Below, one piece after another: positions 18,044-58,488 of a stretch of DNA of 64,000 nucleotides (within the stretch, counting starts at the first letter, position 1; every line of letters starts with the position of its first letter). Origin of the DNA: Anaerolineae bacterium (GTDB taxonomy: Bacteria > Chloroflexota > Anaerolineae > SpSt-600). The stretch spans positions 50,922-114,921 of the forward strand of contig JANXAG010000001.1 of NCBI GenBank assembly GCA_025062375.1, read 5' to 3'. A program made the translations under genes and the position numbers. The notes beneath the pieces were generated by a model, which worked only from the letters and a program-made list of their open reading frames with translations, ran no database searches and was not told the DNA's origin.

Positions 18044-19457
18044 TTTGTCTCCCCCGTTTGTAACCTGTTAAGGTTTTCCATGCCACTTTTACAGTTCTGG
18101 GCAAATCGAGCCAGGTGCGTTTACGGGTAAGGGCTTTGAGGATTCGCCGGGGCCGCAGATAAAAGCGCCGGTATGCTTCCCTCCATTTTCTTTCCACCAG
18201 TTCGGCAGGCATACCGGGCATTTCAAAATGGGCTTTGCCTTCAAAAAAGGCAAAATCATCCCAATCTTTAACGAGAAGCTTCCCTTCTCTTTTCACAATT
18301 TCGTACATTTCAGTTCCTGGGAACGGGGTAGCAATAGAGAAGTTAGCCACCAGCGGGTCAAGCTCTATAGCGAAACGTATGGTTTTCTCCATTGTTTCTT
18401 CAGTTTCACCGGGGAGCCCTATGATGAAAAAGCCTATAGTTTCTATCCCTGCTTCCCTGGCCCACTTGAAAGCTTTTCTTATTTGTTCCAGGGTGAGCTG
18501 TTTATGGATGACTTCATCCAGTATGCGCTGGTCGCCACTTTCCACCCCGAAAGCCACCCGGATGCAACCAGCCTCTCGCATTTTTCGGAGGAGTTCCTTA
18601 TCCACCAGATTGGCTCTTATCCCATTTATCATTATCCAGGGGACGTGGTTGAGTTTCTCTTTAATAAGTAGGTCGCAGATTCGGATGACCCTTTCCCTAT
18701 CCACATTGAAAGTATCATCCAGCACACCTATCTCCAGTGCTCCCATTTCCTTTACGAGCCAGCGCCATTCGGCCAGGACGTTTTCAGGAGAACGCATCCT
18801 CCAGCGACGTGGGCTTATTTGACTGCAGTAGGAACAGCGGTATGGGCATCCCCTGGAAGTCATTATGGGAAAACTTCTACCCCTGGGCAAATGGTCTATG
18901 GTGGGCTGAAGGTTGGTGTAAAGGTGCAGTTTGAAGGGACGATACGAGGGAAACGGGAGGGAGTCCAGATCCACAACTACGGGCCTATCGGGAGTAGAGA
19001 CGATTTCTCCAGAGGCAGTGCGAAAAGTTAGCCCTGAGATTTCTTTGAGGGCATGGGGGTCAAAGCCCTTTTCCAGAGAAGAAACGAGCTCTTCCCAGGT
19101 TAGTTCTCCTTCTCCCCTCACCACTATGTCTACGGCGGGATGGGAAATGGATTCTTCGGGCATGATAGTGGGGTGAACCCCTCCGAGCACTACCGGGACA
19201 TCCAGAACTTTTTTAACCCTCTCGGCGGTTTTCCAGGCCATTTTTATCTGCACAGTGGTGGCTGTTATCCCCACCACTTCCGGCCTGAATTCTTCCAGGA
19301 TCTGCTCTAAGGGTTCGGGATCCACTTCCCCATCCCAGACTTTTACCTGGTCTCCCCGGCGTTCGGAAACAGCGGTGAGGTAGGCAAGCCCCAGAGGAGG
19401 GGAAGCCCTCGTTTCAATTGGGATATTGTAAGGTGGGTTTATGAAAAGGACCCGCAT
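18024..19457 (-). CDS. Cobalamin-binding (class B) radical SAM protein, function unassigned
   Basis: An N-terminal B12-binding-like domain ('[10 protein letters not shown]...VVLGGVHPT') is followed by the radical SAM motif 'CPYRCSYC' (CxxxCxxC). Confidence 0.8.
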
Positions 19458-21031: not shown

Positions 21032-21666
21032 AGTGGAAAATTGACCTTCACCTCCACACTTATTATTCAAAGGATGGACTTTGCTCTCCAGCCCGGGTAG
21101 TTGAATTAAGCCAAGCCAGGGGTCTCGCAAAAATAGCGATAACCGACCATAACTCTATAGTTGGGGCTCTGGAGGCCAAGAAGATAGCCCCGGAGTTTGT
21201 GATAGTGGGTGAAGAGGTAAAAACAAAAAAGGGCGAGCTTTTGGCTCTTTTCATAGAAGAGGAAATTCCCCCGGGCCTTGACCCGCTGGAAACCATCCGT
21301 CGCATTAGAGAGCAGGGAGGGATAGTGGGGATTCCCCATCCCTTTGACCGGCTCCGGCGGGAAGCAATGGGCCATTATGCTCTGGAGATCATAGGGGAAG
21401 TGGATTTTTTGGAAGGGTTTAATGCGCGAACTATTTTCACTGCTGATGATGCTAAAGCTTTCCAGGTCGCGCTGGAAAGGGGCATTCCCGTTTCAGGGGG
21501 GAGCGACGCTCATACTCCTTGGGAGATAGGGATGGCGTGGGTTGAAGTGGAGCCTTTCAGAGGGGAAAAGGAGCTCCTGGAAGTATTGAGGAAAGGGAGA
21601 ATAACTGGTCGGAGAAGCCCTTTGTGGGTGCATATTTTCTCCACCTTAGCTAAGTTCAGGCAGTAA
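21028..21666 (+). CDS. PHP-domain metal-dependent phosphoesterase
   Basis: A 'DLHLHTYYSKDG' His-cluster start and 'ITDHN' are present. The start overlaps the xpt stop (ATGA). Confidence 0.75.
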   Translation: MKWKIDLHLHTYYSKDGLCSPARVVELSQARGLAKIAITDHNSIVGALEAKKIAPEFVIVGEEVKTKKGELLALFIEEEIPPGLDPLETIRRIREQGGIVGIPHPFDRLRREAMGHYALEIIGEVDFLEGFNARTIFTADDAKAFQVALERGIPVSGGSDAHTPWEIGMAWVEVEPFRGEKELLEVLRKGRITGRRSPLWVHIFSTLAKFRQ

Positions 21667-22949
21667 TGGTTCCCAGGAAATATTACCTCTGGTCCATAGG
21701 TTGTCAGATGAATGACGCTGATTCAGCCAGGGCGGCGGAAGCCTTGGAGCGAATGGGCTTCGTGAGGGTGGAAACGCCCTCTGAAGCTGATGTCCTTTTG
21801 CTTAATACTTGCGTGGTCCGCCAGAGCGCCGAAGATAAAGTAAGGGGGCATCTGGCGTCCCTCAAGGCAGTAAAACGCCGCCGGCCTGATGCTTTCCTTG
21901 CGGTAATGGGTTGTTTCGTGGACGATGCTCAACCCCTTTACGAGCAGTTTCCCTACGTGGATCTTTTCCTGCGCCCTTCCGATGTGGATGGATTTATCAA
22001 GGCTGTAAAAGAGCGGCTGGCTCTAGGCGATGGGTGGGTTAGGCCCCCTCTTCCTGCTCCCGTTTCCGTTTACGTCCCTGTAGTTTATGGCTGTGACCAT
22101 TTTTGCACCTATTGCATTGTGAGGCTCAGGCGGGGCAGACAGAAGAGTCGTCCTCTGGAGGAAATAGCCACTGAAGTAGAAGAGCTGGTTAAACGCGGAG
22201 CAAGGGAAGTAATCCTCCTGGGGCAGAATGTGAACTCTTATGGACGAGACCTCCCCGGGAAGCCGGATCTGGCTCAGCTTCTGGAGGCTATCCATCCGAT
22301 AAAAGGGCTGTGGCGCATACGTTTTCTTACCTCTCATCCTGCTGATATGAGCCCAAGGATCATTGAGACGGTTGCTAAACTTCCGAAAGTTTGTGAACAT
22401 TTTGAAATTCCCGTTCAATCCGGAGATGACCTCATCCTCAAGCGTATGGTCAGGGGCTACACGGTTGCTCAGTTCAGGGAATTGGTGCGGAAAATAAGGG
22501 AAACTATTCCCGGGGTGAGCCTTGCCACCGATGTCATTGTAGGTTTCCCCGGTGAAACAGAAGAGCAGTTCATGAACACTTATCGTTTGCTGGAGGAGAT
22601 AAGGTTTGATGTGGTGCACGTGGCAGCTTATTCCCCACGCCCTGGTACCGCTGCCTCTCGCCTGAAGGACGATGTCCCACCTGAAGAGAAAAAGCGCAGG
22701 CTTAAGCTTGTGGAGGAACTCCAGGAGAGGATCTCTTCGGAGATAAACGCTGGACTTATCGGCAAAGAGGTGGAAATACTGGTAGAGGGAAGGCGAAAGG
22801 GGCGATGGTTCGGAAGAACCAGGACCAATAAGCTAGTCTTCTTTGAGGATCCTGGTAACAGGGATGGCCAGATGGTAATGGTGAAGGTAGAGGAGGCGGG
22901 TTCCTGGTCCTTACGGGGGCGGTTTCTCCGGGTGGTTTCCGTGGAGTAA
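21666..22949 (+). CDS. miaB: tRNA (N6-isopentenyl-adenosine-37) methylthiotransferase MiaB
   Basis: The UPF0004 N-domain begins 'YLWSIGCQMNDADS'. The radical SAM motif is 'CDHFCTYC', and a TRAM C-terminus follows. Confidence 0.8.
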   Translation: MVPRKYYLWSIGCQMNDADSARAAEALERMGFVRVETPSEADVLLLNTCVVRQSAEDKVRGHLASLKAVKRRRPDAFLAVMGCFVDDAQPLYEQFPYVDLFLRPSDVDGFIKAVKERLALGDGWVRPPLPAPVSVYVPVVYGCDHFCTYCIVRLRRGRQKSRPLEEIATEVEELVKRGAREVILLGQNVNSYGRDLPGKPDLAQLLEAIHPIKGLWRIRFLTSHPADMSPRIIETVAKLPKVCEHFEIPVQSGDDLILKRMVRGYTVAQFRELVRKIRETIPGVSLATDVIVGFPGETEEQFMNTYRLLEEIRFDVVHVAAYSPRPGTAASRLKDDVPPEEKKRRLKLVEELQERISSEINAGLIGKEVEILVEGRRKGRWFGRTRTNKLVFFEDPGNRDGQMVMVKVEEAGSWSLRGRFLRVVSVE

Positions 22950-37093: not shown

Positions 37094-38335
37094 TCAAACC
37101 GAACGTATGGCAGGGACCCACAGCAGGATTGCCAGGGAGAAAAGCAGGTTTACCCCTGCTCCGAATGCTACCCCCGCTACGGGGCCGAAGGACTGAGCGA
37201 TGCTTCCCGCCAGGAGGGAGCCAAAGGGAACCATACCGAAAAACATGAAGGAAAAGACCGCCATAACCCTACCTCTCAAATTGTCAGGCACCACCGATTG
37301 AAGAAGAGTGTTGCCTGTGGAGTTCTGGATTACAAAACCAGCCCCCACCAGGACCAGAAAAACGAGGGATAAGAGGTAATTGGAAGAAAAGGCGAAAACT
37401 AAAAGAGCACTGGGGAAAAGGAGGCTTCCCGTTAGAAGAAGCCAGCCTTTACGGGGCAAACGACCCAGGGAGGCAACTATCAAAGAACCACAAAGAGCCC
37501 CGATACCAACAGCTGCGTTCAGAAAGCCAAGGCCCCTTTCACCCACTTTCAGGACATCTGCTGCATATGCAGGCATAAGGGTTGAGTAAGAGAAGCCGAA
37601 AAGGGTGGAAACCCCCACGATGAGCACTATTATCTGGGTTACACGATTCCCTGAAATATAGCGAAAACCCTCGGCCAATTGACGGAAGATGGGCTCTGAG
37701 GAGGGAGCGTAGGAAATATCTTTAAAATTCATGAGCACAAGGGCAGAGATCACAGCCAGAAAGCTTAAGCCATTTATCCCAAAGCACCAGGCTGGGCCCA
37801 GGTTTGCCAGCACGATTCCTCCAATAGCCGGCCCTATGACTCTGGCCAGGTTGAACATTGTGGAATTAAGGGCAATAGCGTTCATGAGATCTTCCCGGTT
37901 TTCAATCAACTCCACGGCCAGGGCCTGTCGGGCGGGTGCATCAAAGGAGTTAACGATTCCAGAGAGGAAAGCCACGAGGGCTATGTGCCAGATCTGGAGG
38001 GCTCCGGCAGCCGCCAGCCCGGTAAGGGTAAAAGCAAACAACATAAGGGCTACCTGGGTCGCCAGAAGGAGATGGCGCTTGGGGGTTCTGTCAGCTATCA
38101 CGCCTGCCGGAAGCGTTAAAAAAATGGTGGGGATCGTTCCCATAAACGAGACTAAACCCAGGGCGAAACGGGAGCCCGTAAGCTCGTATACCACCCAGCC
38201 CTGAGCTACCGATTGCATCCACATCCCCATGAGGGAAAAGCCCTGCCCGATAAACCAGAGGCGGTAATTGTGATAGCGAAGGGAAACAAAGGTGGGGGGA
38301 AGCCGTAGCTCTGCTGTCTTGAGGCATGGACTCAT
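37094..38335 (-). CDS. Major facilitator superfamily transporter
   Basis: Twelve predicted TM segments and MFS motif A 'GVIADRTPKR'. The start overlaps the rSAM stop by 4 nt. Confidence 0.85.
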   Translation of the reverse strand: MSPCLKTAELRLPPTFVSLRYHNYRLWFIGQGFSLMGMWMQSVAQGWVVYELTGSRFALGLVSFMGTIPTIFLTLPAGVIADRTPKRHLLLATQVALMLFAFTLTGLAAAGALQIWHIALVAFLSGIVNSFDAPARQALAVELIENREDLMNAIALNSTMFNLARVIGPAIGGIVLANLGPAWCFGINGLSFLAVISALVLMNFKDISYAPSSEPIFRQLAEGFRYISGNRVTQIIVLIVGVSTLFGFSYSTLMPAYAADVLKVGERGLGFLNAAVGIGALCGSLIVASLGRLPRKGWLLLTGSLLFPSALLVFAFSSNYLLSLVFLVLVGAGFVIQNSTGNTLLQSVVPDNLRGRVMAVFSFMFFGMVPFGSLLAGSIAQSFGPVAGVAFGAGVNLLFSLAILLWVPAIRSV

Positions 38336-40062
38336 GACTCAGCTCCCCGGAAAAGTATTGTAGCACTTCTGAGGAGGCGTAAGTTGAAGAACCCAAGCCG
38401 CACGTTTAACTCTTCCTTATCGCAGACGGTGGAAGTGTTTGCATTATCCACGTGGGGTTTCAGAGCCCTGAGGAATTTATCCCTGAGGGCACTATTGGAC
38501 ATGGTAAGGACGTCGTCGATAAGGCGGAGGAGGAGGCGAGCTTTGTGGATGCGGGAGCTCACGTCTTCTGCCCTGCGCGGAGAAATCAGACCATATGCTT
38601 TCTTGAGCTCATTGAGGCGGAGCCCCGCTTCATAGGTGCTTTCCACTATCTCTTCCCTGCTCATCCATATGGTTTCATAACTAAGGATATACTTCCAGCT
38701 GGGCTGCTCCAGGGCAAAGCGGTGCTCTTCAAGAGAGCGATAGAAAACCCTATAGCCGTATTGTTCTGGAGCCTCAAAGGCCGCACTCCCGGGATCGAGG
38801 AAGGGGGCCATGGGTGAGATAAAGGGGAAAAGGCGTGGGCTCCGGTTCCGATTGAATTCCCGGATAAGCTTGCCAGCGTAATCCACTGTCTCCATAACTG
38901 AAGAAAAGTCCTGTCCGGGAAGGCCAATCATGAAGAAGACATCCAGCCTTTTACATCCTGCTTCCAGGGCGTATTCCATAGTGGCTTCGGCTTGAGCTGT
39001 GGTATAGGGTCGTCCGAAGGCCTGCCGAACAGCATCGCTATGGCTTTCCAGGGAAATTTCCAGAACGAAATTGGGCAGGGCACGAGCTAACTTCCTGAAG
39101 AAATCCCGATCGGCAGCATCGAATAGCTCCACTATGACAGGCCCCTCGTATCCCTGAATGGCTTTGAAGAACCTGTCGGCGTAATCCATCCCTGCCTGGC
39201 GCAGATCTCCGAGGATAAACACAGGGCCTTTGGAGAAGCGGGCAATATTACGGATGTCTCTGGCCAGAAGTTCGGGATCCCTGTAGGCGGGCTCAGAGCG
39301 CCCATGCAGCTTCCTGAAAGTGTAGGCAGATCCCCCACAGGTCCGGCAGGAATGCGTGCAGCCGCGGCAGGTCAGAACAGCTGTGATGGGATAGCCGAGC
39401 CATCCTTTGAAAGGTATAAAGCTGATTAAATCTCGGTAGCGGGCTACCGCTCTTACGACGTAGCTGTAATCTAAAAGCACGTAGTTCAAATCGGGAGGAA
39501 TCCAGCTTAGAGGGTTTATGTGGATCTCTCCCTTTTCATCTTTCCAGGTCAGGTTGGGGATGGCTTCAAGGGGAGGCGCATCCTTATCCCCTCTTATTCG
39601 CTTCATAAGCAACCGGAGAGGCTCCTCCGCAGAATCTCCCCGGACCACGAAGTCTACTTCGGGTCGTTCTATAAGTTCGCGGTGATAGTAAGTGGAGGAA
39701 AATCCTCCGAGTATAACGGGGGTTTGAGGGTGATATCTTTTGACCAGGCGGGCCACTTCTATAGCTCCGTGGCAGTGGGGCATCCAGTGCAGATCTATCC
39801 CAAAGGCCAAGGGATTGAGGGATGAAATCAAATTTTCGGGGTTAAAGCGTTCAGAAGCCAACATCCTGACGGCTAAGTTTATTATCCTGACTTTGAATCC
39901 GTGGCGTTCCAGGTATTCGGCTATCGTGGTAAAACCTATAGGATACATCTCAAAAATCGGGGTTGACGGGATTAGGTCGCTTATAGGGCCGTAAAGGATG
40001 GTTTTGGTGCGGAAATCGTAAACACTTGGAGGATGGAGGAGGATCAGATCTGGATTAGCCAT
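38332..40062 (-). CDS. Cobalamin-binding (class B) radical SAM protein with ~200-aa C-terminal extension, function unassigned
   Basis: A B12-binding-like N-domain ('VILGGFSSTYY'), the radical SAM motif 'CTHSCRTC' and a long helical C-terminal region are present. Confidence 0.8.
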   Translation of the reverse strand: MANPDLILLHPPSVYDFRTKTILYGPISDLIPSTPIFEMYPIGFTTIAEYLERHGFKVRIINLAVRMLASERFNPENLISSLNPLAFGIDLHWMPHCHGAIEVARLVKRYHPQTPVILGGFSSTYYHRELIERPEVDFVVRGDSAEEPLRLLMKRIRGDKDAPPLEAIPNLTWKDEKGEIHINPLSWIPPDLNYVLLDYSYVVRAVARYRDLISFIPFKGWLGYPITAVLTCRGCTHSCRTCGGSAYTFRKLHGRSEPAYRDPELLARDIRNIARFSKGPVFILGDLRQAGMDYADRFFKAIQGYEGPVIVELFDAADRDFFRKLARALPNFVLEISLESHSDAVRQAFGRPYTTAQAEATMEYALEAGCKRLDVFFMIGLPGQDFSSVMETVDYAGKLIREFNRNRSPRLFPFISPMAPFLDPGSAAFEAPEQYGYRVFYRSLEEHRFALEQPSWKYILSYETIWMSREEIVESTYEAGLRLNELKKAYGLISPRRAEDVSSRIHKARLLLRLIDDVLTMSNSALRDKFLRALKPHVDNANTSTVCDKEELNVRLGFFNLRLLRSATILFRGAES

Positions 40063-42042: not shown

Positions 42043-43020
42043 ATGAGTTCTGATTTAGCTGTTATAATCGTAAACTGGAATGTATCAGCCCTTTTAAGAC
42101 GTTGTCTGGAAAGCCTGGAAAAATCTACCGATATCTCTTTCACCTCTTCTCCTGCCCGCTACCAGGGGGATGTCACTGTGGTAGACAATGCTTCCACCGA
42201 CGACAGTGTGGAAATGGTGTGCTCTCTTTTCCCCTGGGTTCGCCTCCTAACCAGCAAAGTTAACCTGGGGTTTGCCAGGGCCAATAACCTTATCCTTAAA
42301 AGCCGGATGATGGAAGACCCACCAGCTTTTTTCCTCCTTTTAAACCCTGATACGGAGGTTGCACCGGATGCCATCTCCCGCATGCTTGATTTCATGGTGG
42401 CCAACCCGGAGGTGGGGGTAATTGGTCCTAAACTCCTTAATCCCGACGGAACTGTTCAACCCTCAAGGCGCCGTTTCCCTTCCCTCCTCACTGCTTTTCT
42501 GGAAAGCACCATTATCCAGTGGCGTCTCTGGAAGAACAATCCCGTGCTTCGCCACTATTACATAGCAGACAAATCCGATGACGAGATTCAGGAAGTGGAT
42601 TGGCTCACCGGGGCCTGCCTAATGGTCAGGCAGGAGGCAGTGGAAGCTGCCGGCTTCCTGGACGAGGATTTTTTCATGTATTCCGAGGAGCTGGATTGGT
42701 GCCGCAGGATTAAATCCTTGGGCTTCAAGATCGTCTACTTTCCCTATGCCCAGGTAGTCCATCACTCGGCCCAGTCCAGCGAGCAGGTGAAACCCCTTCA
42801 GCACATTCGCTTTCAGAGGAGCAAAATTCTCTACTTCCGCAAATATTTCGGCCCCTTCTGGGGGCTTTTCCTCCACATTTTTCTGGTGTTCAACTATTTT
42901 ATCCTCTTCACAGAAGAAGCGATTAAATGGCTCCTCACCAGGCGGCCGGAGCATAAAAGAGGCATGGAAAGCTACCGGGAAATTTTGATTTCAGGGCTTT
43001 TAAGGGGGTGGGAAGAATGA
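42043..43020 (+). CDS. Glycosyltransferase family 2
   Basis: 'VIIVNWN', 'VDNASTDDS' and 'LLNPDTE' are present. It is a paralog of the GT2 at 52973. Confidence 0.8.
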   Translation: MSSDLAVIIVNWNVSALLRRCLESLEKSTDISFTSSPARYQGDVTVVDNASTDDSVEMVCSLFPWVRLLTSKVNLGFARANNLILKSRMMEDPPAFFLLLNPDTEVAPDAISRMLDFMVANPEVGVIGPKLLNPDGTVQPSRRRFPSLLTAFLESTIIQWRLWKNNPVLRHYYIADKSDDEIQEVDWLTGACLMVRQEAVEAAGFLDEDFFMYSEELDWCRRIKSLGFKIVYFPYAQVVHHSAQSSEQVKPLQHIRFQRSKILYFRKYFGPFWGLFLHIFLVFNYFILFTEEAIKWLLTRRPEHKRGMESYREILISGLLRGWEE

Positions 43021-44240
43021 AAGTTTGCTTTGTAACAGGTGAATTTCCCCCCATGGAGGGGGGAGTAGGGGATTACACAAAAGAGTTAGCAATGGCAATG
43101 GCTGCTCAGGGGGTTGAAGTATGCGTTATCACTTCTGTTAAAGCAAGGGAAGCCAATTTTCCTCCCCTGAAAGTCTATCCAGCAATGGAAAAGTGGGATT
43201 GGGGACACTGGAGTAAAATTGCAAAGTATATTCGCTATGAAGAACCCCAGGTGCTTCACATTCAATATCAGGCGGCTGCCTATAACATGCACCCGGCTGT
43301 TAACCTCTTGCCGTGGCGTCTTAAGCTTCTCCGGAACCGCCCCCTGATTGTAACCACTTTTCACGATTTAAGGGTCCCCTACCTTTTCCCCAAGGCTGGA
43401 GTTTTGAGAGAGTGGGCCATTACCCTCATGGGGTTAGGGAGTGATGGAGTTATTGTCACCAACGTGGAAGATCTCCTGAACCTGCGACGGAGGTTTGAAG
43501 GGCTTCGCCGTTTTCCCCTTTCACCAATCCGTCACATCCCCATTGGCTCCAATATAAGGCCAGAGCTGCCACCCAATTACCACCGCGACCACTGGCGGGC
43601 ACGCTGGGGGGTAGCCAAGGAGGACATACTCCTTTCCCACTTCGGTTTTTTGAACGAAACCAAAGGAGTGGAAGCCCTGGTAAAGGCTCTCCACCGGTTA
43701 GTGAAAGAAGGTTATCCGGTAAAGCTATTGATGGTGGGTGGGGAAACTGGCTCCAGTGATCCCACCAACCTGGAGTACGCTCGCAAGGTGAAAGCATTGA
43801 TAGAAGAACTGGGCCTTGAAGAGAGGGTTAAATGGACCGGGTACACTTCTCCTGAAGAGGTATCGGCTAACCTGATCGCCTCTGATATCTGCGTTTTGCC
43901 CTATAGAGATGGGGTATCTCTCAGAAGGGGGAGCCTTCATGCAGCTCTAATCCATGGTTTGCCGATCATAAGCACGCATCCCCGGGTGGCTATTAAAGAG
44001 CTCAGGGATGGGGAGAACATCAAGCTTGTGGCCCCTGATGACCCGGAGGCCATAGCGCGAGCGGTCATAGAGCTAAGTCAGGACCTCAACTTACGTAATA
44101 AGCTTGGAGAAGGAGCCAAGAAGCTTTCGGCTAAATTTGGGTGGGAGGGAATAGCCAGCGAAACCCTTAAATTTTACGGGGAGCTGAAAGCAAGCTTTTC
44201 TCAGGCCCAGACTCAATGGAGCTACGGGAAAGGGTGTTAA
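43008..44240 (+). CDS. Glycosyltransferase family 4
   Basis: The GT-B protein begins 'KVCFVTGEFPPMEGGVGDY' and has a C-terminal EX7E-type region. Confidence 0.8.
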   Translation: MGRMKVCFVTGEFPPMEGGVGDYTKELAMAMAAQGVEVCVITSVKAREANFPPLKVYPAMEKWDWGHWSKIAKYIRYEEPQVLHIQYQAAAYNMHPAVNLLPWRLKLLRNRPLIVTTFHDLRVPYLFPKAGVLREWAITLMGLGSDGVIVTNVEDLLNLRRRFEGLRRFPLSPIRHIPIGSNIRPELPPNYHRDHWRARWGVAKEDILLSHFGFLNETKGVEALVKALHRLVKEGYPVKLLMVGGETGSSDPTNLEYARKVKALIEELGLEERVKWTGYTSPEEVSANLIASDICVLPYRDGVSLRRGSLHAALIHGLPIISTHPRVAIKELRDGENIKLVAPDDPEAIARAVIELSQDLNLRNKLGEGAKKLSAKFGWEGIASETLKFYGELKASFSQAQTQWSYGKGC

Positions 44241-44243
44241 ATT

Positions 44244-45785
44244 ATGCGGATGAGCAAGCTCTTCGGCCGTACTTTGAGGCAGGTGGAGGAGAGAGGAAGC
44301 ACGGGCCTTAAGCTCCTGGCAAGGGCAGGTTTCCTCCGAAGGGAGCCCTTTTCCATCCTGCCCCTCGGTTCCCTGGCCTTGGAGAAGCTCAAATCTCTTT
44401 GGGAGAAAGTTCTTGCCCCGGAGTTTCAAAGAATTGAATTAACCTTCTGTGAGCCCCTATCGCCTGAAGAAAAGCTCCTGCTCCTTGTTTCCAAAGAGCT
44501 CGCATCGTACCGGGAACTCCCTCTCTACTTGGAATCAGAAGTGTACCTCAGTAAAACTTCTCCCTTTTACCTGCCGGAAGGGAAGGCTTACCTTTTATTG
44601 GGACTTTTACCGGATGAGGGTTCAGCCCGGGAACAGTGGCAAGCTTTGAGCGAAAAGGCCGAGAGGTTGATCAAGTCGTGCAAGCTTCACAGCCCTTTTC
44701 CCGGCTTCGGAAAGGGATGGGACTGGATTGTGCCAGACCCTGAGGGGGAAGAGAGGGTGGTGGTATGTCCAGGCTGCGGGTATTCAGCGCCTCCTGCCTG
44801 GGCCAGGGTTCATATAGAACCCCTCCCTCCCGAGGAGTTAGAGCCCCCGAGAGAGGTGGCAACCCCCAATTGCACTACTATTGAGTCCCTGGCTTCCTTC
44901 CTGGGGGTTCCCAGAAGTAAAACGGCTAAAGCTGTATTTTATACCGGAGAGGATGAGAGAATAGTTTTCGCTGTAATCCGAGGGGATATGGAGGTAAGCG
45001 AGGCTAAGCTTTCATCAGAACTGGGCTGGGTAACGCTCAGACCTTCTACCGAAGGGGAACTGCTCTTTGCGGGTATAGTGCCTGGTTATGCTTCGCCCAT
45101 AGGGGTCAAAGGGGTAACTGTTGCGGTGGATAGCTCCCTCAGAAGCGGAGCTAACTTTGTAGCCGGAGCTAACCGGGAAGGTTACCATTTAATCGGGGTA
45201 AATTATCCCAGAGATTTCCAGGCAAATCTGGAAGGGGATCTGGCCCTGGCCAGGGCCGGGGACCGATGTCCTTTCTGCCAGGCTGTTTTTGAAGAAGCCA
45301 GGGGGTTTCTGGTGGCATCACTGCGGATGGCTGGCCCCGAGGGCACATCTCGCCGCGGCCTTTCTTTCAATACTCCCGAGAGGAGAAAGGATCACCCATG
45401 GGCCATCCTTATGGTTCTTTACCCATACCGGTTTCTGGAAGCAGTAGCTCAATTAAATCATGATGAAAAGGGGTTGCTTTGGCCCGAGCCTTTAGCCCCC
45501 TTCCACGTTCACCTCATAGGCCTTGGAGAAGAAGGCCTCACCGAAGGAGAAAGCTTTTACCTTCGGCTCAAGACCGAGGGAATAGCGGTGCTGTTTGACG
45601 ATCGGGATGAAAGCGCCGGAGTAAAGTTTACCGATGCCGACCTAATAGGCCTGCCCTGGAGGGTGGTGGTAAGCAAGCGTTCCTTATCTCAGGGAGGGGT
45701 TGAAGTCAGAAGAAGAACCGAATCTCTTTCAAGGGTTGTGCCCTTTGACGTTTTCCTCAGAGAAGTTCAATCCGGTAATCAATGA
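44244..45785 (+). CDS. Prolyl-tRNA synthetase-like protein with degenerate class II catalytic motifs but retained INS (editing)-domain and anticodon-binding-domain signatures
   Basis: It aligns with bacterial ProRS at the N-terminus, at INS-like blocks ('VATPNCTTIESLASFLGV', 'RGDMEVSEAK', 'GANREGYHLIGVNYPRD') and at the anticodon-binding domain ('HVHLIGLGEE...DDRDESAGVKFTDADLIGLPWRVVV'). Motif 2 (FRDExRPR becomes YLSKTSP) and motif 3 (GCYGIGVSR becomes VLYPYRFLE) are degenerate. Confidence 0.55.
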   Translation: MRMSKLFGRTLRQVEERGSTGLKLLARAGFLRREPFSILPLGSLALEKLKSLWEKVLAPEFQRIELTFCEPLSPEEKLLLLVSKELASYRELPLYLESEVYLSKTSPFYLPEGKAYLLLGLLPDEGSAREQWQALSEKAERLIKSCKLHSPFPGFGKGWDWIVPDPEGEERVVVCPGCGYSAPPAWARVHIEPLPPEELEPPREVATPNCTTIESLASFLGVPRSKTAKAVFYTGEDERIVFAVIRGDMEVSEAKLSSELGWVTLRPSTEGELLFAGIVPGYASPIGVKGVTVAVDSSLRSGANFVAGANREGYHLIGVNYPRDFQANLEGDLALARAGDRCPFCQAVFEEARGFLVASLRMAGPEGTSRRGLSFNTPERRKDHPWAILMVLYPYRFLEAVAQLNHDEKGLLWPEPLAPFHVHLIGLGEEGLTEGESFYLRLKTEGIAVLFDDRDESAGVKFTDADLIGLPWRVVVSKRSLSQGGVEVRRRTESLSRVVPFDVFLREVQSGNQ

Positions 45786-46041
45786 GCTCTACCTGAGGGT
45801 AGTGCTGTAAAATCCATTCCACTACGTTGCTCAGAAGGCGATGCGCTTCCTCTGAGCTGGTAGAGACGCAGGCGATTCCCAGCTCGGCCCTCTGCCAGAG
45901 ATCCTGAGCGCCTATTTCGGCTATGGAGACGTTGAAGTTGCTCTGGACCCGCCGAATTATGGATTGAAGTATTCTCCTTTTATCTTTCAGAGAACCGTTC
46001 CCTGGGAGGTGCAGTTCGAGAGTGCAGGTTCCGATTACCAA
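45757..46041 (-). CDS. DUF503-family protein (YlxP-like)
   Basis: 'LELHLPGNGSLKDKRRILQSIIRRVQSNFNVSIAEIGAQDLWQRAELGIACVS' matches DUF503. Confidence 0.7.
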   Translation of the reverse strand: MVIGTCTLELHLPGNGSLKDKRRILQSIIRRVQSNFNVSIAEIGAQDLWQRAELGIACVSTSSEEAHRLLSNVVEWILQHYPQVELIDYRIELL

Positions 46042-47117: not shown

Positions 47118-47935
47118 TTTAAACCTCCAAGTCTAAAAGTCCATTCTTCGCTTGAATACTTTTTCCGCAAACTGCGGGCTTGTTCTTCTTCAAAAGGGGT
47201 GAGGGAAGAAGGAACCAACAGCAGGTTGAAGGCCTCCCGGAAGCCTCGGATGAAGGCAACAGTTGCTTCTTCAAAGGTTATTTCCCGGCCCAGCAGGTCC
47301 GAAAGGGTTGAGGCCCTCTGGCGGAGCTTTTCCCTGAGGGCTTCTTTCTCCTTCTCTCCGAGGCGAAGGAAACGGACTATAGCCGCGATATCACCTCTGA
47401 GAGGTATAGAGCCATGCTGAAGGAGGGCATTCTTGCGACGGAGCTGGGCGCTACCTATGACCTTTTTGCCTTCACACTCTATCTCATAATCGGAAGGAGC
47501 TTCAAAGCACACGGGGCTTGGGAGATTACCCTGGCGGGGTGGTATTGCCTGATAGGGCTTCAAACCCAGAACTTCAAGACCTCTGAGAAGTCCATAACTT
47601 ATCCTTCGGAAGGAATCCAGAACCCCCGTTCCGGCCAGAGGATGGGAGGCAGGCAGAACGACGGTGTAGGTGAGTTCGTGGTGATGGAGGATGGCTTTGC
47701 CTCCGGTAGGCCTGCGGACTATCTCAACGCCAGCTCTGTGGCATTCTTCAAGGTCTAACTCTTCCAGGATTGCTTGATTGAGGCCTACTGAAAGACATGG
47801 AGGTTCCCACCCATAGAAGCGCAGAGTAGGAGGAACAAGGCCTTCCGAAACAGCCTGAAGGATAGCCTCATCTATGGCCATATTGGTTGCTCCATCGGCA
47901 AAGCCGCTTACTACAAGCCGCCAGCTTTCGGCCAT
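47114..47935 (-). CDS. Lipoate-protein ligase A / octanoyltransferase family (BPL_LplA_LipB catalytic domain only)
   Basis: 'RRPTGGKAILHHHELTY' and the Lys block 'GKKVIGSAQ' are present. Confidence 0.8.
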   Translation of the reverse strand: MAESWRLVVSGFADGATNMAIDEAILQAVSEGLVPPTLRFYGWEPPCLSVGLNQAILEELDLEECHRAGVEIVRRPTGGKAILHHHELTYTVVLPASHPLAGTGVLDSFRRISYGLLRGLEVLGLKPYQAIPPRQGNLPSPVCFEAPSDYEIECEGKKVIGSAQLRRKNALLQHGSIPLRGDIAAIVRFLRLGEKEKEALREKLRQRASTLSDLLGREITFEEATVAFIRGFREAFNLLLVPSSLTPFEEEQARSLRKKYSSEEWTFRLGGLK

Positions 47936-48873
47936 ATGCCTGCCTCCATTATAGCGCGGCGAGTTTCAGCCGGGGACGGGGGGTAAGGAAAGTTGTATAG
48001 GGGGCCTGATGGGCGTTCGTTGTAGTAGGGACGGTTGCAATCGGGGCAGCCTGAAGTTCGGAAGGCTTCACCGCTGGAAAGAACTTCCAGGTCAAATGGA
48101 GGGAAAGCCATTAATTTGCCATCCCTGGAGAAGGAAAGCTCCTCAGCCCGGACCAGATTTTGGACTATGAGATAACGGGCTATCTGGATGCGTCTGTAGG
48201 AAGCGAGGGGAGGGGGTGGTGAGTTTTCCATCCTTGTTCCAGCCAGAGGGGTAAAGGCGAAAAGTCCTGTAATTACGCCCAGGTCATGCATCTTCTGAAT
48301 CATCCGGATCATTTCTTCTTCTGTCTCGCCCAGGCCCACGATAAGGTGAACAGCTGCCCGACCGGGGTATTTGTAAGCTGTTTCTTCTATAAGGCTAAGG
48401 GCTTTTCCCCAGCCAGGCCCTTTGACCCGGGCGAAGACTCTTTCGGAGGCAGCATCCAGGCCAAAGCCTAGATGGTCAAGGCCGGCCTCGAACAGGATCT
48501 GAACTTCCCTGAAGTTCTGCGGGAGGAAAGCAGCATCTACAGGCAGAGGAGTCCTTTCCCTCAGTTTACGGACCAGCCTCACGGTTTTCTGGAAAGCTCC
48601 GGGGGAGTGGGTGACCTGAAGGCATATCCTCTTAAAGGGGCCGAGAGAACCCAGGGCTTCAAGTCTGGAAATTACTGTTTCTTCTGGGAAAGGGGGCCAG
48701 GAAATTCGTGAAAGGGAATAGGGCTTAGCGTTGCTGCTTCGGGCTTGCGAGCAAAAAGCGCAATCTCTCAGGCATTTGCCCCCCAGCATCAGGTAAGCGG
48801 TAGTAGGGGGGTGAGCCACTTTACCCAGTTTCAATCCCAGAGCTATGGCCGTTCCCAAGGAGATATTAACCAT
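47911..48873 (-). CDS. Radical SAM protein, lipoyl-synthase-like but non-canonical (possible LipS-type)
   Basis: The N-proximal motif 'CLRDCAFC' (CxxxCxxC) and a C-terminal 'GCPDCNRPYY' Cys pair are present. It lacks the LipA N-terminal auxiliary-cluster motif. The gene overlaps and is co-oriented with the LplA-family gene. Confidence 0.55.
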   Translation of the reverse strand: MVNISLGTAIALGLKLGKVAHPPTTAYLMLGGKCLRDCAFCSQARSSNAKPYSLSRISWPPFPEETVISRLEALGSLGPFKRICLQVTHSPGAFQKTVRLVRKLRERTPLPVDAAFLPQNFREVQILFEAGLDHLGFGLDAASERVFARVKGPGWGKALSLIEETAYKYPGRAAVHLIVGLGETEEEMIRMIQKMHDLGVITGLFAFTPLAGTRMENSPPPPLASYRRIQIARYLIVQNLVRAEELSFSRDGKLMAFPPFDLEVLSSGEAFRTSGCPDCNRPYYNERPSGPLYNFPYPPSPAETRRAIMEAGIWPKAGGL

Positions 48874-53914: not shown

Positions 53915-54675
53915 AGGGGATAACGGCTTTGGTGCTAACCTTAAACGAGGAGAAAAACATAGAGGAATGCCTCCAAACCCTCCTGTGGGCCGATAAACTC
54001 ATCGTGCTGGATTCTGGAAGCTCTGATCGCACGGTGGAAATTGCCTGGAGGATGGGGGCAGAGGTTTTCTTTCACCCTTTCCAGAACTATGCAGACCAAC
54101 GTAATTTTGCCCTCCAGCTGGTTCAAACAGATTGGGTTCTTTTTATAGATGCCGATGAAAGGGTGACGCCGGAGTTAGCTCAGGAGATAAGGGAAGCGGT
54201 GGAAAAGGAAAGCATTTGCGGATGGTGGATACCCCGAAAAAATTACATCTGCGGCCGGTGGGTCCGGCACGGGGGCTGGTATCCTGATTACCAGCTTCGT
54301 CTCCTGCGCCCTGAAAAAGCTCACTACGATTCCGCTTGGGAGGTCCATGAAATTGTAGTGGTTGAAGGGGGAACCGGCTACCTCCGCCACCACATTATCC
54401 ACTATAACTACAGGACATGGCCGGAATTCATCGCTCGTCAGAAAGTTTACCTCCCCCTTGAGGTAAGGACATTGCGGAAACGAGGTATAAAGGCAAAACC
54501 CTGGAGCCCTTTTTCAATGCCTCTCAGGGAATTCTGGAGGCGATATTTCAAACTTGAGGGATATAAAGACGGCCTTTATGGCTTAATTTTGGCCTTGGCT
54601 ATGGCCTTCTATACAATGCTGGCTTACACTCAACTCTTTCTTTCATCCTTCAGGTTAAAAGAGCCACGGGCCTGA
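53911..54675 (+). CDS. Glycosyltransferase family 2 (small, LPS-core-type)
   Basis: The protein begins 'ITALVLTLNEEKNIEECL' and has 'LDSGSSD' and 'FIDADE'. Confidence 0.8.
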   Translation: MKGITALVLTLNEEKNIEECLQTLLWADKLIVLDSGSSDRTVEIAWRMGAEVFFHPFQNYADQRNFALQLVQTDWVLFIDADERVTPELAQEIREAVEKESICGWWIPRKNYICGRWVRHGGWYPDYQLRLLRPEKAHYDSAWEVHEIVVVEGGTGYLRHHIIHYNYRTWPEFIARQKVYLPLEVRTLRKRGIKAKPWSPFSMPLREFWRRYFKLEGYKDGLYGLILALAMAFYTMLAYTQLFLSSFRLKEPRA

Positions 54676-56086
54676 AGGTTATCACACCTCTTTCAAATTT
54701 TACCCTGGGCAAGCCCCACCTATCGGTGGTAGGGTCTTCTACGGGATAACCCAGGGGGCCTTCTGCTCCGCCTTTTTCGTAAATGTAGTAGTCCCTTATG
54801 GGGCCCCACAGGATATAAGCTTTTGAGGTTCCATCCCTAAGCATTATTATAGACTTGAAAGAGCCATCGGGCGTTTTGAAATCCTGAACCCAACCATTTC
54901 CCCAGCGGTGAACGGGGACTCCTCCACCATTATCGAAGGGAAGACCGAGGACTTTTTCCCCACCATGCCTAAGGTAACATTCTACAATGGGCCAGTAAAT
55001 GCGCCCGGAAGCATCCCTTCCCACTGACGGCGGAACATCCAGAAGCTCAGGGGTCCGGGATATGCTGGCCCATTCTTGGAACCGGTAGTATATGGGTTTG
55101 CGGGCAAGAGTTCCAAAGCCAGCCTGAGTGTAGAGGCCTTTTGTAGTGCCGGGGAAATCCCGCAGGCAGAACCAGATGGCTGCTCCTATTCTCTCATCTT
55201 TCAGTAAAGTGTAAAAAGCTGTCGCCATGGCGGCGGCTTGAAAATCATCGCCCTGCTCTGAATCCCAACCAATTTCGGAAATGTATATGCGCGTTGAGGT
55301 GTTCTTACCCTCATAAATCGTTATGCTTTCCCAAATGGCGTTGATGTAAGTCTGAAGAGTGTTCCGAATATAATCAACCCCTCTGTCTCTGGTCTGGCCT
55401 ATGTAGGGGTGATAGCCAACCCCGTCAAGAGGATATGAGCCGAAAGCACTTTTTACTTCACCCCAGTTTAATTCCCTTATTCCGTAATAGTACATTTGAC
55501 GCAGATAAGAGGCTCCGGTGTCGGCGCCGGTTGGAAGGTCATGGGCAAGAATAGGCCCAGAGATTATGCGGACGTTGAAAGAGGGCTTAACAGCCAGGTA
55601 CACCTCCTTCTGGATGCGAGCCATCCAGTAGGGGTGGAAAAGGCTTGTAGTTCCTCCAAACCAGTTGTTGGGCTCGTTTATAAGCTCAAAAACCCAAACG
55701 CGGTCGCGGAAACGCTCAACAATTGTGTAAAAGTTATCCACATACCTCTTGATCCAATCTTCTGCCCCAGGGCCCGGGGCTTTGCGGCGGAAATTATCTC
55801 CAGGCCCAGGCTTCACCGATTCTAAACCGATCAAACCATATATCGCCACATTTCTGGCCAGAAGTCCGTCCACTATGGCGTCAAAGGTCTCAAACCATGT
55901 TCTTCTGCAGTATAGGGAGCGATCGGTGGGGGAATTCCAGGGCCCCAGGATGAAATTGAGGCGAACCATACTGGTTCTGGTATCGGCTATTATCCGGGGG
56001 TCAGCCATTTGGGGTGCTGGGCACCCATTGGGCTCAAGAGGGCTGTTGGCGTCAAGGCCTATTTTGGAAGAAGGTATAAGGGCCAT
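54650..56086 (-). CDS. Clan GH-A (GH5-like) glycoside hydrolase with C-terminal LGFP-like repeats
   Basis: The acid/base motif 'ELINEPNNW' and the nucleophile 'ISEIGW' are present, with 'GPLGYPVEDP' at the C-terminus. No obvious signal peptide is visible. Confidence 0.65.
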   Translation of the reverse strand: MALIPSSKIGLDANSPLEPNGCPAPQMADPRIIADTRTSMVRLNFILGPWNSPTDRSLYCRRTWFETFDAIVDGLLARNVAIYGLIGLESVKPGPGDNFRRKAPGPGAEDWIKRYVDNFYTIVERFRDRVWVFELINEPNNWFGGTTSLFHPYWMARIQKEVYLAVKPSFNVRIISGPILAHDLPTGADTGASYLRQMYYYGIRELNWGEVKSAFGSYPLDGVGYHPYIGQTRDRGVDYIRNTLQTYINAIWESITIYEGKNTSTRIYISEIGWDSEQGDDFQAAAMATAFYTLLKDERIGAAIWFCLRDFPGTTKGLYTQAGFGTLARKPIYYRFQEWASISRTPELLDVPPSVGRDASGRIYWPIVECYLRHGGEKVLGLPFDNGGGVPVHRWGNGWVQDFKTPDGSFKSIIMLRDGTSKAYILWGPIRDYYIYEKGGAEGPLGYPVEDPTTDRWGLPRVKFERGVITFRPVALLT

Positions 56087-56089
56087 GTT

Positions 56090-57190
56090 CTAAACTCCTC
56101 CAAGGATTTTATTGTAAACCTCAAAAGTTTGACGGGCTACAGCTTTCTGAGTAAACCTTTCCAGAACCCTTTCTCGTCCTTTCCGAGCCAGGTAAAGGCG
56201 CAGCCCCTCATCGTTCATAAGCTTTAGGATGGATTCCCGGAGAGCTTCCTCATCCCCTTCGGGAAACACGAGGCCAGCATCCCCTATGACGTTGGGTATT
56301 TCTCCGCAGGTGGAACCTATGACCGGAACTCCGCAGGCCATCGCCTCTATCAAAACCCGCCCGAACTGTTCCTTCCAGTTGGGTTTCGTTATGGATGGCA
56401 ATACAAGGAGATCAAGCTGGCGGTAGAAGCCGGGTAGCTGAGAAGAAGGGAGGAAGCTTAAGAAATGGGTGCGCTGGGATAGTCCGAGGCTAAGAGCGAG
56501 CTCTTCTAACTCCCGGCGTTTTGGCCCTGTGCCCAGGATAAAAAGTTCCCACTCTCCGCCGATTCTGGCCATGGCTCTAAGGAGCAGGTGAACCCCCTTT
56601 TCTTCTACAAGCCTTCCTGCATAACCCACGATAAAGGGTTGGCCTCTTTCCCGGGCAGGATCAGGCTTAAAAATATCCTCATCCACTCCAAATTGTGGGA
56701 TCAAGCTTATGCTCTTCTGGTATCCCTTGCGCCTCAGCACTTCCATAGCCTCCTGGTTTCCGGCGATGGCCCAGGAGGATTGGTGGTAATTGTATCGTTC
56801 AAACCAGGAGAAGGGCGGAGGGTAGCGGCGGTAGAGGTTCTGCCAGGTGAAAAATAGAGCTCTGGCTCCCAATTTTCTGGCCAGCACCATGGCTTGGAAA
56901 GTGGCCAGATTGTATGGCTCCTCGTCAATGTGGACCAGTTTTGGTTGGATTTTCCGCAGGTGGAAGGGCAGGCGCAGGTAAAAGTGGAGATGGTAATTCC
57001 CGTTAAAAATCAAGTCATCCACGAGCATTTTGTAATTTTCTTCCCCCTCTTCAAGGGGCAGAATCCCTCTCTCATCGCGCCAGTAGCGAGGAACTACCAG
57101 GAACATTTCAACTCCTAATTTCGCCAGTTCCTCCAGTTTTTTCCGGTAAACTTTGAAGACACAGGCTTTGGAAACCATCAGGACACGCAT
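56090..57190 (-). CDS. Glycosyltransferase family 4
   Basis: The GT-B C-domain has 'LVLPSITKPNWKEQFGRVLIEAMACGVPVIGS'. Confidence 0.8.
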   Translation of the reverse strand: MRVLMVSKACVFKVYRKKLEELAKLGVEMFLVVPRYWRDERGILPLEEGEENYKMLVDDLIFNGNYHLHFYLRLPFHLRKIQPKLVHIDEEPYNLATFQAMVLARKLGARALFFTWQNLYRRYPPPFSWFERYNYHQSSWAIAGNQEAMEVLRRKGYQKSISLIPQFGVDEDIFKPDPARERGQPFIVGYAGRLVEEKGVHLLLRAMARIGGEWELFILGTGPKRRELEELALSLGLSQRTHFLSFLPSSQLPGFYRQLDLLVLPSITKPNWKEQFGRVLIEAMACGVPVIGSTCGEIPNVIGDAGLVFPEGDEEALRESILKLMNDEGLRLYLARKGRERVLERFTQKAVARQTFEVYNKILGGV

Positions 57191-58488
57191 GCCATCTCCT
57201 TGAGCGCCGGCACTCCCTCAAGAACCCCCCACACCCCTCTTTCCGGTCCTTCAGAGTCTGGTCCCTTTTCCTCCCCGAGAGCTACTAAGCGCACAGGCGT
57301 GATAACGTTAGATAGAGGACATGGGCTGAAGGCGAAAACCCGAATGTAATTATCAGTGAGGCCGGAACACAGGAATTTTCCCTCCCGGTGTTCCGGTGTT
57401 TCCCACAGGACTTCCATTGTGCGGCCCAGGAAGCGCGATTGAAAAGCTCTTTCGCTTTCCTTGCCCACTTCGGCCACGAGCTTTTCTCTTTCCCTCTTAA
57501 TTTTTCCGGAAACTTGGCCTTTCATAGCTGCGGCTGGGGTTCCAGGGCGTGGGGAATAGGGAAAAACATGGATGCGGGCAAACTCCATTTTCTTTATGAA
57601 CTCAAGGCTCTGACGGAATTCCTCCCACGTTTCCCCTGGGAAACCCACCATTACATCGGTGGTTACAGCCAGGTCCGGAATCCACGATCGAGCTTCTTCC
57701 ACAAGGTGGGCGTATTGGGCTGCAGTGTAACGTCGCCCCATTCTCTTTAAGGTTTCATCGCACCCGCTCTGGAGAGGAAGATGCAGGTGCCGACATAACC
57801 GGCGATCCTGCCATAGGGAGAAAAAGCCCGGAGGTATATCCCAGGGTTCTATGGAAGAAAGCCTCAACCGTTGAATTGGGGTTTCTTCCAGAACGGCCTT
57901 TATAAGGCTTGCCAGATCAACCCCCAGGTCACAGCCGTATCCCCCAAGGTGGATTCCAGTCAGTACCACTTCCTTATAGCCGGCCTCGGCTAACCTTTTC
58001 ACCTCTTCTACCACTTCTGAAAGGGGGCGGCTTCTCTCCCGTCCTCTAGCCACCCGAATAATACAGTAAGTGCAGTAATTGTTGCATCCATCTTGAACTT
58101 TCACAAAGGCCCTGGTAGCTCCTGGGGAAGGGGATAGCGGAGGAGCCCACGGAGCCCTCGCTCCGACCAGAATCTGGGGCAGGAACTCCTTTTCCGAATT
58201 TTTAACCACAAGGCTGACCCCTTCAATGGAGTTTATCTCTTCCCGAGCAATTTCGGCGTAGCAACCTGTGACCACTATCTTAGCGGCCGGATTCAGGCGA
58301 TGCATTCTCCTTATGAGCTGGCGGGATTTATGGGATGCAGCGCTGGTTACAGTGCAGGTGTTGATTACGATAAAGTCGGCCTCTTCAGGAGAAGAAATCT
58401 CATGCCCCAGAGCTACAAATTCCCGCTCCCAGGCCTCCTGCTCGCTCCTGTTGGTTTTGCACCCTAAGAAAGTAAGGAAAACTTTCAT
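57178..58488 (-). CDS. MiaB-family radical SAM methylthiotransferase (MtaB/RimO-like paralog)
   Basis: The N-terminus is 'MKVFLTFLGCKTNRSEQEAW'. The radical SAM motif is 'CNNYCTYC', and a TRAM-like C-terminus follows. Confidence 0.8.
   Translation of the reverse strand: MKVFLTFLGCKTNRSEQEAWEREFVALGHEISSPEEADFIVINTCTVTSAASHKSRQLIRRMHRLNPAAKIVVTGCYAEIAREEINSIEGVSLVVKNSEKEFLPQILVGARAPWAPPLSPSPGATRAFVKVQDGCNNYCTYCIIRVARGRERSRPLSEVVEEVKRLAEAGYKEVVLTGIHLGGYGCDLGVDLASLIKAVLEETPIQRLRLSSIEPWDIPPGFFSLWQDRRLCRHLHLPLQSGCDETLKRMGRRYTAAQYAHLVEEARSWIPDLAVTTDVMVGFPGETWEEFRQSLEFIKKMEFARIHVFPYSPRPGTPAAAMKGQVSGKIKREREKLVAEVGKESERAFQSRFLGRTMEVLWETPEHREGKFLCSGLTDNYIRVFAFSPCPLSNVITPVRLVALGEEKGPDSEGPERGVWGVLEGVPALKEMACVS

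Follow-up and report, generated by a model that had tools for sequence, protein, structure and literature searches.

A Chloroflexota protein derived from prolyl-tRNA synthetase, with a degenerate aminoacylation core and conserved editing and anticodon-binding domains, is a candidate trans-editing factor

Introduction

The division of an aminoacyl-tRNA synthetase (aaRS) into a charging and a proofreading protein has its precedent in the crenarchaeal ThrRS-cat/ThrRS-ed split of threonyl-tRNA synthetase (ThrRS) (PMC3592468, PMC7373986), and ThrRS-ed is known to act in trans as proofreader for a separate synthetase that serves the same amino acid but has no editing of its own (PMC3592468, PMC7373986, PMC11295145). 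In the present work, a 64-kb stretch of contig JANXAG010000001.1 from an Anaerolineae bacterium (64,000 nucleotides in full, hereafter the window) was analysed, and one of its genes, located at 44244..45785 on the + strand, was found to encode a derivative of bacterial-type prolyl-tRNA synthetase (ProRS) that keeps the INS editing domain and the anticodon-binding domain. Like ThrRS-ed, this protein is synthetase-derived and retains editing and anticodon-binding domains without aminoacylation motifs; unlike ThrRS-ed, which is archaeal, belongs to a different synthetase family and carries a DTD-like editing fold and not INS, it keeps the whole split class II core as a remodelled scaffold. All of its sequence and fold matches were to ProRS and none to ThrRS-ed, and the resemblance is one of analogy only. 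On these comparisons ThrRS-ed would be the closest functional analogue, and ProXp-ala the closest functional equivalent for proline.

ProXp-ala has the same role as that proposed here, namely the clearing of Ala-tRNAPro where ProRS lacks INS, and uses a homologous catalytic fold (PMC3973320, PMC11295145). It is a single domain that reads the acceptor stem of tRNAPro (N72/N73), whereas the present protein is multidomain, 513 aa long, and should read the anticodon. Members of the INS superfamily other than the INS of ProRS have been reviewed as single-domain proteins, with fused forms of ProXp-ala also noted (PMC11295145). Streptomyces ProRSx is likewise descended from a bacterial ProRS and occurs together with a housekeeping one (PMC9437257), as the present protein is presumed to do; ProRSx has kept aminoacylation and changed its tRNA specificity, whereas the present protein has kept the tRNA-recognition and editing modules and lost aminoacylation. 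ProRSx was the sole ProRS entry in a 2022 review of aaRS duplications, the scope of which was duplicates with catalysis kept (PMC9437257), and the searchable literature yielded no earlier account of a full-length ProRS that is catalytically dead, subscription-only papers lying outside that scope.

From the comparisons reported below we consider it fairly probable that the gene encodes an editing-only derivative of type-1 ProRS (ProRS-ed), which would clear the Ala-tRNAPro made by a separate, INS-less ProRS.

Results

The coding sequence (CDS) taken from the listing of open reading frames (ORFs) runs on the + strand from an ATG at 44244 to 45785 and specifies 513 aa plus a stop codon. Its product is identical to NCBI MCS7285605.1 and MDW8101316.1, which are named 'YbaK/EbsC family protein' or 'His/Gly/Thr/Pro-type tRNA ligase C-terminal domain-containing protein'. 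An earlier note on this DNA had assigned a bacterial-type ProRS architecture to the ORF, and this was borne out by its exact placement and by the agreement of Pfam and structure-relative matches. The domain order core-INS-core-anticodon-binding domain and the ProRS fold are present. The N-terminal half of the degenerate class II core (44244..44753, +, aa 1-170), recognised from alignments, retains the N-terminal helix region and SYRxLP and is followed by a first CxxC pair, C175/C178 (44766..44777, +; homolog alignments). The INS editing domain, with its active site intact (44862..45233, +, aa 207-330; Pfam PF04073 and residue map), precedes the C-terminal half of the degenerate core (45234..45503, +, aa 331-420), which was placed from alignments, includes the segments LVASLR and VLYPYR and holds a second CxxC pair, C342/C345 (45267..45278, +). 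The class IIa anticodon-binding domain (45504..45782, +, aa 421-513; Pfam PF03129) ends the protein.

In the Pfam scan of the 513-aa protein, PF04073 (tRNA_edit) matched residues 207-319 (E 1.8e-21; 76.9 bits against a cut-off of 25.5) and PF03129 (HGTP_anticodon) residues 422-509 (E 4.7e-14; 52.7 bits against 21), and no match to the class II core domain tRNA-synt_2b was obtained. The NCBIfam proS equivalog models aligned to residues ~161-507 only and stayed below their cut-offs (NF006625, 234 bits vs 558; TIGR00409, 155.9 vs 306.7), and the YbaK equivalog TIGR00011 gave 17.5 bits vs 153.25; at 513 aa and with several domains, the protein is not a free-standing single INS-like domain, which would measure ~150-170 aa. 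The best relatives of solved structure were bacterial ProRS from S. aureus, E. faecalis and P. aeruginosa (5znj, 4.9e-53; 2j3l). An AlphaFold model was confident throughout, the degenerate N-terminal core included (pLDDT 94.5, pTM 0.91), a confidence that may be inflated by the canonical ProRS sequences in the input alignment, and its best superposition in Foldseek was with E. faecalis ProRS 2j3l_A (E 7e-48, TM 0.74). In domain order, fold, INS residues and anticodon-binding domain the protein thus resembles canonical ProRS with INS (E. coli; E. faecalis 2J3L), which is likely its direct evolutionary origin and stands in the same genomic slot in some relatives; it differs from canonical ProRS in lacking the aminoacylation residues, in the deletion of ~42 aa of core loops and in falling below the equivalog cut-offs.

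The state of the aminoacylation site was read by aligning the protein with the canonical ProRS of Chloroflexota and with that of E. coli, the E. coli sequence being checked by confirming that published residue numbers land on the correct amino acids. A stretch of ~35 aa, beginning at the end of motif 1 and reaching the THEE loop, is deleted, and the GGxxSHEF segment has lost a further 7 aa. The proline-binding loop may survive in part as S73-P-E75-E76, E75 being the retained equivalent of E. coli E111. The motif 2 arginine is indispensable in class II synthetases. Residue scoring of motifs 2 and 3, which the earlier note had proposed as a check, showed the motif 2 arginines to be gone (R140 replaced by E99, R151 by L110 and R153 by E112, with F155 deleted). 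The canonical EVGHxF has become LVASLR (H413 replaced by S359, F415 by R361), the EVGHxFxLG segment reading LVASLRMAG, and motif 3, GSYGIGxGR, has become VLYPYR, with glycines G445 and G447 replaced by V391 and Y393. Of motif 3 the query keeps only the arginine position, which is R, K or H among orthologs. Judged from its residues, the aminoacylation site is inactivated; Pfam, equivalog scores and residue alignments agree on the combination that had been claimed for this gene, an inactivated aminoacylation core beside retained editing and anticodon-binding domains.

The INS active site presented the opposite picture. E. coli K279, T257, I263, L266, D350 and H369 correspond to K229 (codon 44928-44930), T207, I213, L216, D296 and H315, and the G-x-x-x-P loop is present as G277..P280. 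The active-site residues were invariant among 119 homologs, and 61 of the 75 INS positions that are invariant within the group of the query equal the canonical consensus. In the anticodon-binding domain, DDR..GVKF.DADL.G is conserved. K279A is the standard editing-dead mutant of ProRS (PMC3973320). INS has no intrinsic recognition of tRNAPro and depends on the anticodon-binding domain of ProRS, which reads G35/G36, while changes in the acceptor stem are inconsequential for INS editing (PMC3973320, PMC11295145). Because it is the anticodon-binding domain that INS relies on, and not the acceptor stem, editing need not suffer from the loss of the motif 2 loop, and a ProRS shell with INS and the anticodon-binding domain but no motif 2 loop therefore has the known requirements of INS editing.

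These residues also bear on the specificity of the putative deacylase. It could act on another or a broader target (Cys-, Ser- or Abu-tRNAPro), or carry out regulated deacylation of Pro-tRNAPro, while docking through the anticodon domain; members of the INS superfamily span several aminoacyl specificities on one fold (PMC11295145), and the group-specific invariants of the remodelled core could alter how the CCA end is presented. We regard this as unlikely, since the residues of the alanine pocket (I263, L266, H369 and K279 in E. coli numbering) are identical and the INS invariants largely match the canonical consensus, as given above.

The two CxxC pairs flank INS. C175 was invariant and C178 at least 90% conserved among the 119 homologs, canonical ProRS included, and both were invariant in a 19-sequence alignment. 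The CxxC segment pointed out in the earlier note is thus present, but it is not specific to the degenerate protein: the canonical ProRS of the homolog set carry both pairs, and the pairs were rejected as a paralog-specific feature. They are shared with canonical Chloroflexota ProRS and are absent from E. coli ProRS; together they probably make up a zinc site, particular to this lineage, that staples INS at its base. As a separate observation, one degenerate homolog, P0021 (L110 8001-9599), has an extra INS insertion of ~22 residues, GDTPAHPPSGGEQAYARRAGAS, just past the strand of the catalytic lysine.

Selection on the gene was then considered. Intact orthologs of 505-516 aa were recovered by protein search at 78% down to ~43% identity, none with a Pfam core domain, and all seven ortholog CDSs (7/7) were uninterrupted, with no frameshifts or stop codons, at a synonymous divergence that reaches saturation. 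The Nei-Gojobori dN/dS over the seven orthologous CDSs was 0.10-0.14 overall. Regional values, computed from three unsaturated pairs (dS 0.47-0.66), were lowest in INS (0.02-0.04), followed by the anticodon-binding domain (0.06-0.11), with 0.11-0.16 in the degenerate N-terminal core and 0.10-0.32 in the C-terminal core. The conservation check on relatives thus revealed purifying selection on all regions, strongest in INS. Recent pseudogenisation, which the earlier note had taken as its null hypothesis, was rejected on the intact orthologs and the dN/dS of about 0.1. A decaying pseudogene would account for the lost catalytic motifs and for a rate of evolution above that of the neighbouring genes; the absence of frameshifts and stops from seven orthologs under this constraint, the length of 505-516 aa kept in the query's own group and the confident fold leave it practically no probability.

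Within the query's group, 20 of the 49 invariant positions of the N-terminal core and 17 of the 32 of the C-terminal core are group-specific substitutions, W159-D160-W161 among the residues concerned. By this sequence pattern the dead core is remodelled in the group, not merely eroded.

The query gene belongs to a large, unnamed Chloroflexota family. Among the 119 best matches, all four core signatures were present in 64 and none in 49, with intermediates between. An exhaustive search of 1.84 billion cluster representatives (50%-identity clusters) gave 826 matches at E<=1e-30, and motif scoring was performed on the best 150 of these; none of the four core signatures was found in 143 of these 150 closest representatives, while among the 129 full-length ones all four editing signatures were present in 92 and the anticodon-domain signature in 120. 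Conservation across the wider family is found in the INS catalytic residues and the anticodon domain, the core being hypervariable. The named members are Chloroflexota without exception and are labelled 'hypothetical', 'YbaK/EbsC family', 'tRNA ligase C-terminal domain-containing' or 'prolyl-tRNA synthetase'; degenerate P0029, P0030 and P0259 (JGI) and P0064 (NCBI) are among those labelled 'prolyl-tRNA synthetase' or 'proline--tRNA ligase'. In a neighbour-joining tree built from simple distances over INS and anticodon-domain columns, the degenerate forms were monophyletic in 0 of 200 bootstraps and fell into 4-13 separate clades, the exact clade count being tentative, and the sister pair P0073/P0108, one degenerate and one near-canonical, was recovered in 200 of 200. 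Because the degenerate forms were never monophyletic, decay of the core has been repeated.

The remodelled core raises another explanation, that of a non-catalytic tRNAPro-binding or regulatory protein of the HisZ or SLIMP kind, in which the former active site would be a new pocket for a ligand or partner and INS would be conserved for structural reasons. The group-specific substitutions of both core halves, the purifying selection on the core (dN/dS 0.11-0.16) and the frequency of aaRS paralogs with non-translational roles (PMC9437257) all speak for it. The family as a whole argues against it, a hypervariable core beside conserved INS catalytic residues and anticodon domain being the signature of selection on editing, and so does the placing of the strongest constraint on INS; we judge it somewhat less likely still than a deacylase of different specificity.

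The enzyme that would charge tRNAPro beside such a protein was sought among type-3 ProRS, with the T. thermophilus ProRS sequence, validated against 1h4q, as the query. Type-3 ProRS (479 aa, PF09180), which lacks INS, is abundant and highly conserved in Anaerolineae. A type-3 proS lies immediately upstream of a type-1 proS at three loci, in an Anaerolineales metagenome-assembled genome (MAG) (L054 4389-7668), in the complete genome of Ktedonosporobacter rubrisoli (L064 3758-7716) and in an 880-kb metagenome-assembled contig (L119 5001-8262). These pairs establish that redundancy between the two ProRS types exists in Chloroflexota. At L113-L118, from related lineages, no gene fills the type-1 slot, which lies between the type-3 proS and a DNA-alkylation-repair gene. 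A co-occurrence scan of reference genomes gave, among the matches listed, no close ortholog and no genome with two loci. The 64-kb window holds none of the genes that neighbour type-3 proS (MazG-like, LOG, DNA-alkylation repair), and no tRNA genes were found in it.

The genomic slot of the gene was also compared. Degenerate P0021 and L007 occupy the proS-nusA-infB position, and the proS-nusA arrangement is also seen with canonical-length proS in other Chloroflexota (L024, L046, L079, L107); some degenerate genes are therefore positional descendants of the resident proS. The earlier note had called the gene a paralog. The ProRS relationship stands, but the gene may not be a stray duplicate, some family members holding the ancestral proS position. 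In the window itself, an archaeal-type phosphoenolpyruvate carboxylase gene (1146-2672, +; PEPcase_2, E 2.9e-189) lies directly upstream of nusA, in the proS slot.

The nusA-infB-rbfA-truB operon of the window ends in an unusual fusion, in which ribF (FAD synthetase and flavokinase) is joined to a C-terminal Archease domain (8710-10086, +; L122 15831-17207). Archease is an RNA-ligase cofactor.

Downstream of the ProRS-derived gene lies a convergent DUF503 gene (45757..46041, -; Pfam PF04456), the 3' end of which overlaps the CDS by 29 nt. No other neighbour is conserved in every close ortholog, and the arrangement persists even with different genes upstream. DUF503 is the YlxP family, found in the nusA-infB operon of Bacillus, and the pair it forms with the ProRS-like gene may be a piece of the ancestral proS-nusA neighbourhood that has been displaced.

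Upstream, a GT4 glycosyltransferase (GT) gene (43008..44240, +; Pfam) precedes the ATG with a gap of 3 nt after its stop codon, and its linkage is not conserved. The earlier note had proposed either a free-standing trans-editing role or one tied to envelope glycan synthesis, for instance an aminoacyl-tRNA-dependent step. In favour of the glycan role, the short gap, a purine-rich stretch upstream of the ATG and a promoter and terminator scan around the gene that gave nothing above shuffled background make co-transcription plausible in the query genome, and the same polyprenyl synthase-GT2-GT4 block lies upstream in the P0005/L087/L092 lineage. That amounts to two of three close lineages: in L002/L089/L090, a lineage just as close, the block gives way to an amidohydrolase and a metallophosphoesterase, although the flanking proteins are 77-88% identical there (77-93% across all ortholog loci). 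The block is also not present at P0021, P0019, P0064 and P0104, and distant degenerate members adjoin translation genes such as nusA-ylxR-infB-rbfA-truB (P0021, L007) and yqeY/ybeY (P0019), or else secDF (P0064) or unrelated genes. Because the GT linkage is not conserved and GT genes are scattered along the query contig, the glycan hypothesis is unsupported, and we hold it to be highly improbable; of the two proposals, free-standing trans-editing was the best supported.

Two further features of the window were recorded. A second glycan-type cluster, with GT2/GT4, aminotransferase and nucleotidyl-transferase genes, surrounds a 478-aa ORF (54650-56086, -) of no Pfam family and only a faint resemblance to DUF5722. 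Radical-SAM genes are unusually many for 64 kb (38332-40062, -; 18024-19457, -; 21666-22949, +; 57178-58488, -; 47911-48873, -), comprising two of B12-binding type, two of MiaB/RimO-like UPF0004 type and one that adjoins LplA.

Discussion

In the editing-only reading that we favour, the ProRS scaffold would be retained as a framework, keeping INS and the anticodon-binding domain in the arrangement that they normally have. The anticodon-binding domain would dock tRNAPro through G35/G36 and the INS site would hydrolyse Ala-tRNAPro, while the former synthetic site would be unable to bind ATP or to activate proline. Another ProRS of the cell, most probably an INS-less type-3 (archaeal/eukaryote-like) enzyme, would charge tRNAPro, and ProRS-ed would supply in trans the proofreading that the type-3 enzyme lacks. 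As for its evolution, arrival of a second ProRS would have made the resident type-1 proS redundant for charging, so that it was retained for editing only, and this would have happened repeatedly in Chloroflexota. We infer the deacylase activity, the Ala-tRNAPro substrate and both the identity of the partner ProRS and its presence in the query genome.

Several observations weigh against this reading. The activity is wholly inferred, and the group-specific invariant residues of the core could point to something beyond scaffolding. The ProRS-like protein evolves faster than its neighbours (71-73% vs 77-93% identity), and the confidence of the structural model is subject to the caveat given with it. 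The type-1 copies that stand beside type-3 genes at L054, L064 and L119 are catalytically intact, and no type-3 proS was seen beside a degenerate member at P0064, at P0104 or at any locus compared. Within the 64-kb window, neither a canonical proS (tblastn with Chloroflexota type-1 ProRS) nor a type-3 proS (search with T. thermophilus type-3 ProRS) was detected, and no proS occurred in the ~80 kb of contig formed by the window and ~16 kb beyond it. No type-1 or type-3 ProRS named by NCBI could be matched to the query MAG by accession block, and a second type-3 search, seeded with P0235, returned no match attributable to that MAG. Nor did these searches turn up a second ProRS for any genome that carries a degenerate member.

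The same negative results, covering the window, ~80 kb of the contig and the NCBI-named candidates, would be expected if the protein were still the working ProRS of the cell with a non-canonical active site, and the retention of E75 and of the motif 3 arginine position in the query is compatible with that. However, the ATP-binding residues of motif 2 and the glycines of motif 3 are gone, the motif 3 arginine is Lys or His in close orthologs, and a hypervariable family core is incompatible with an essential catalytic site; the chance of this is slighter even than that of a glycan role. A glycan role, residual synthetase activity and a pseudogene are all largely excluded.

A broader form of the editing-only reading can be put forward tentatively, namely that an acquired INS-less type-3 ProRS has repeatedly turned the resident ProRS into a dedicated proofreader across Chloroflexota, in which case the INS superfamily would have here its first trans-editing factor with several domains and anticodon reading, and archaeal ThrRS-ed a counterpart among bacteria. 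It may further be that, in the query's lineage, the dead pocket (W159-D160-W161, A358-S359-x-R361, L392-Y393-P394) has been refashioned into a new conserved site, one that might accommodate the acceptor end or else a ligand by which editing is gated. In this full extent the proposal is doubtful, though we rate it a little above the alternative of a deacylase with another target.

If the editing-only reading is true, the split solution of synthetase and proofreader, so far known only from archaeal ThrRS, would extend to bacteria and to ProRS, and a multi-domain, anticodon-dependent member would join an editing superfamily whose trans-acting members have been described as single-domain. The family would also be a natural experiment, in which an analogue gained by horizontal transfer displaced an essential enzyme, the latter then being subfunctionalised; the replicates would be many, mutually independent and at varied stages of decay. 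Members of the family would serve as natural separation-of-function variants of ProRS for the question of how the CCA end reaches INS without a synthetic site. Uninformative or 'prolyl-tRNA synthetase' labels on such proteins can mislead aaRS inventories, in which they are a likely source of error, as well as metabolic and completeness calls for Chloroflexota MAGs.

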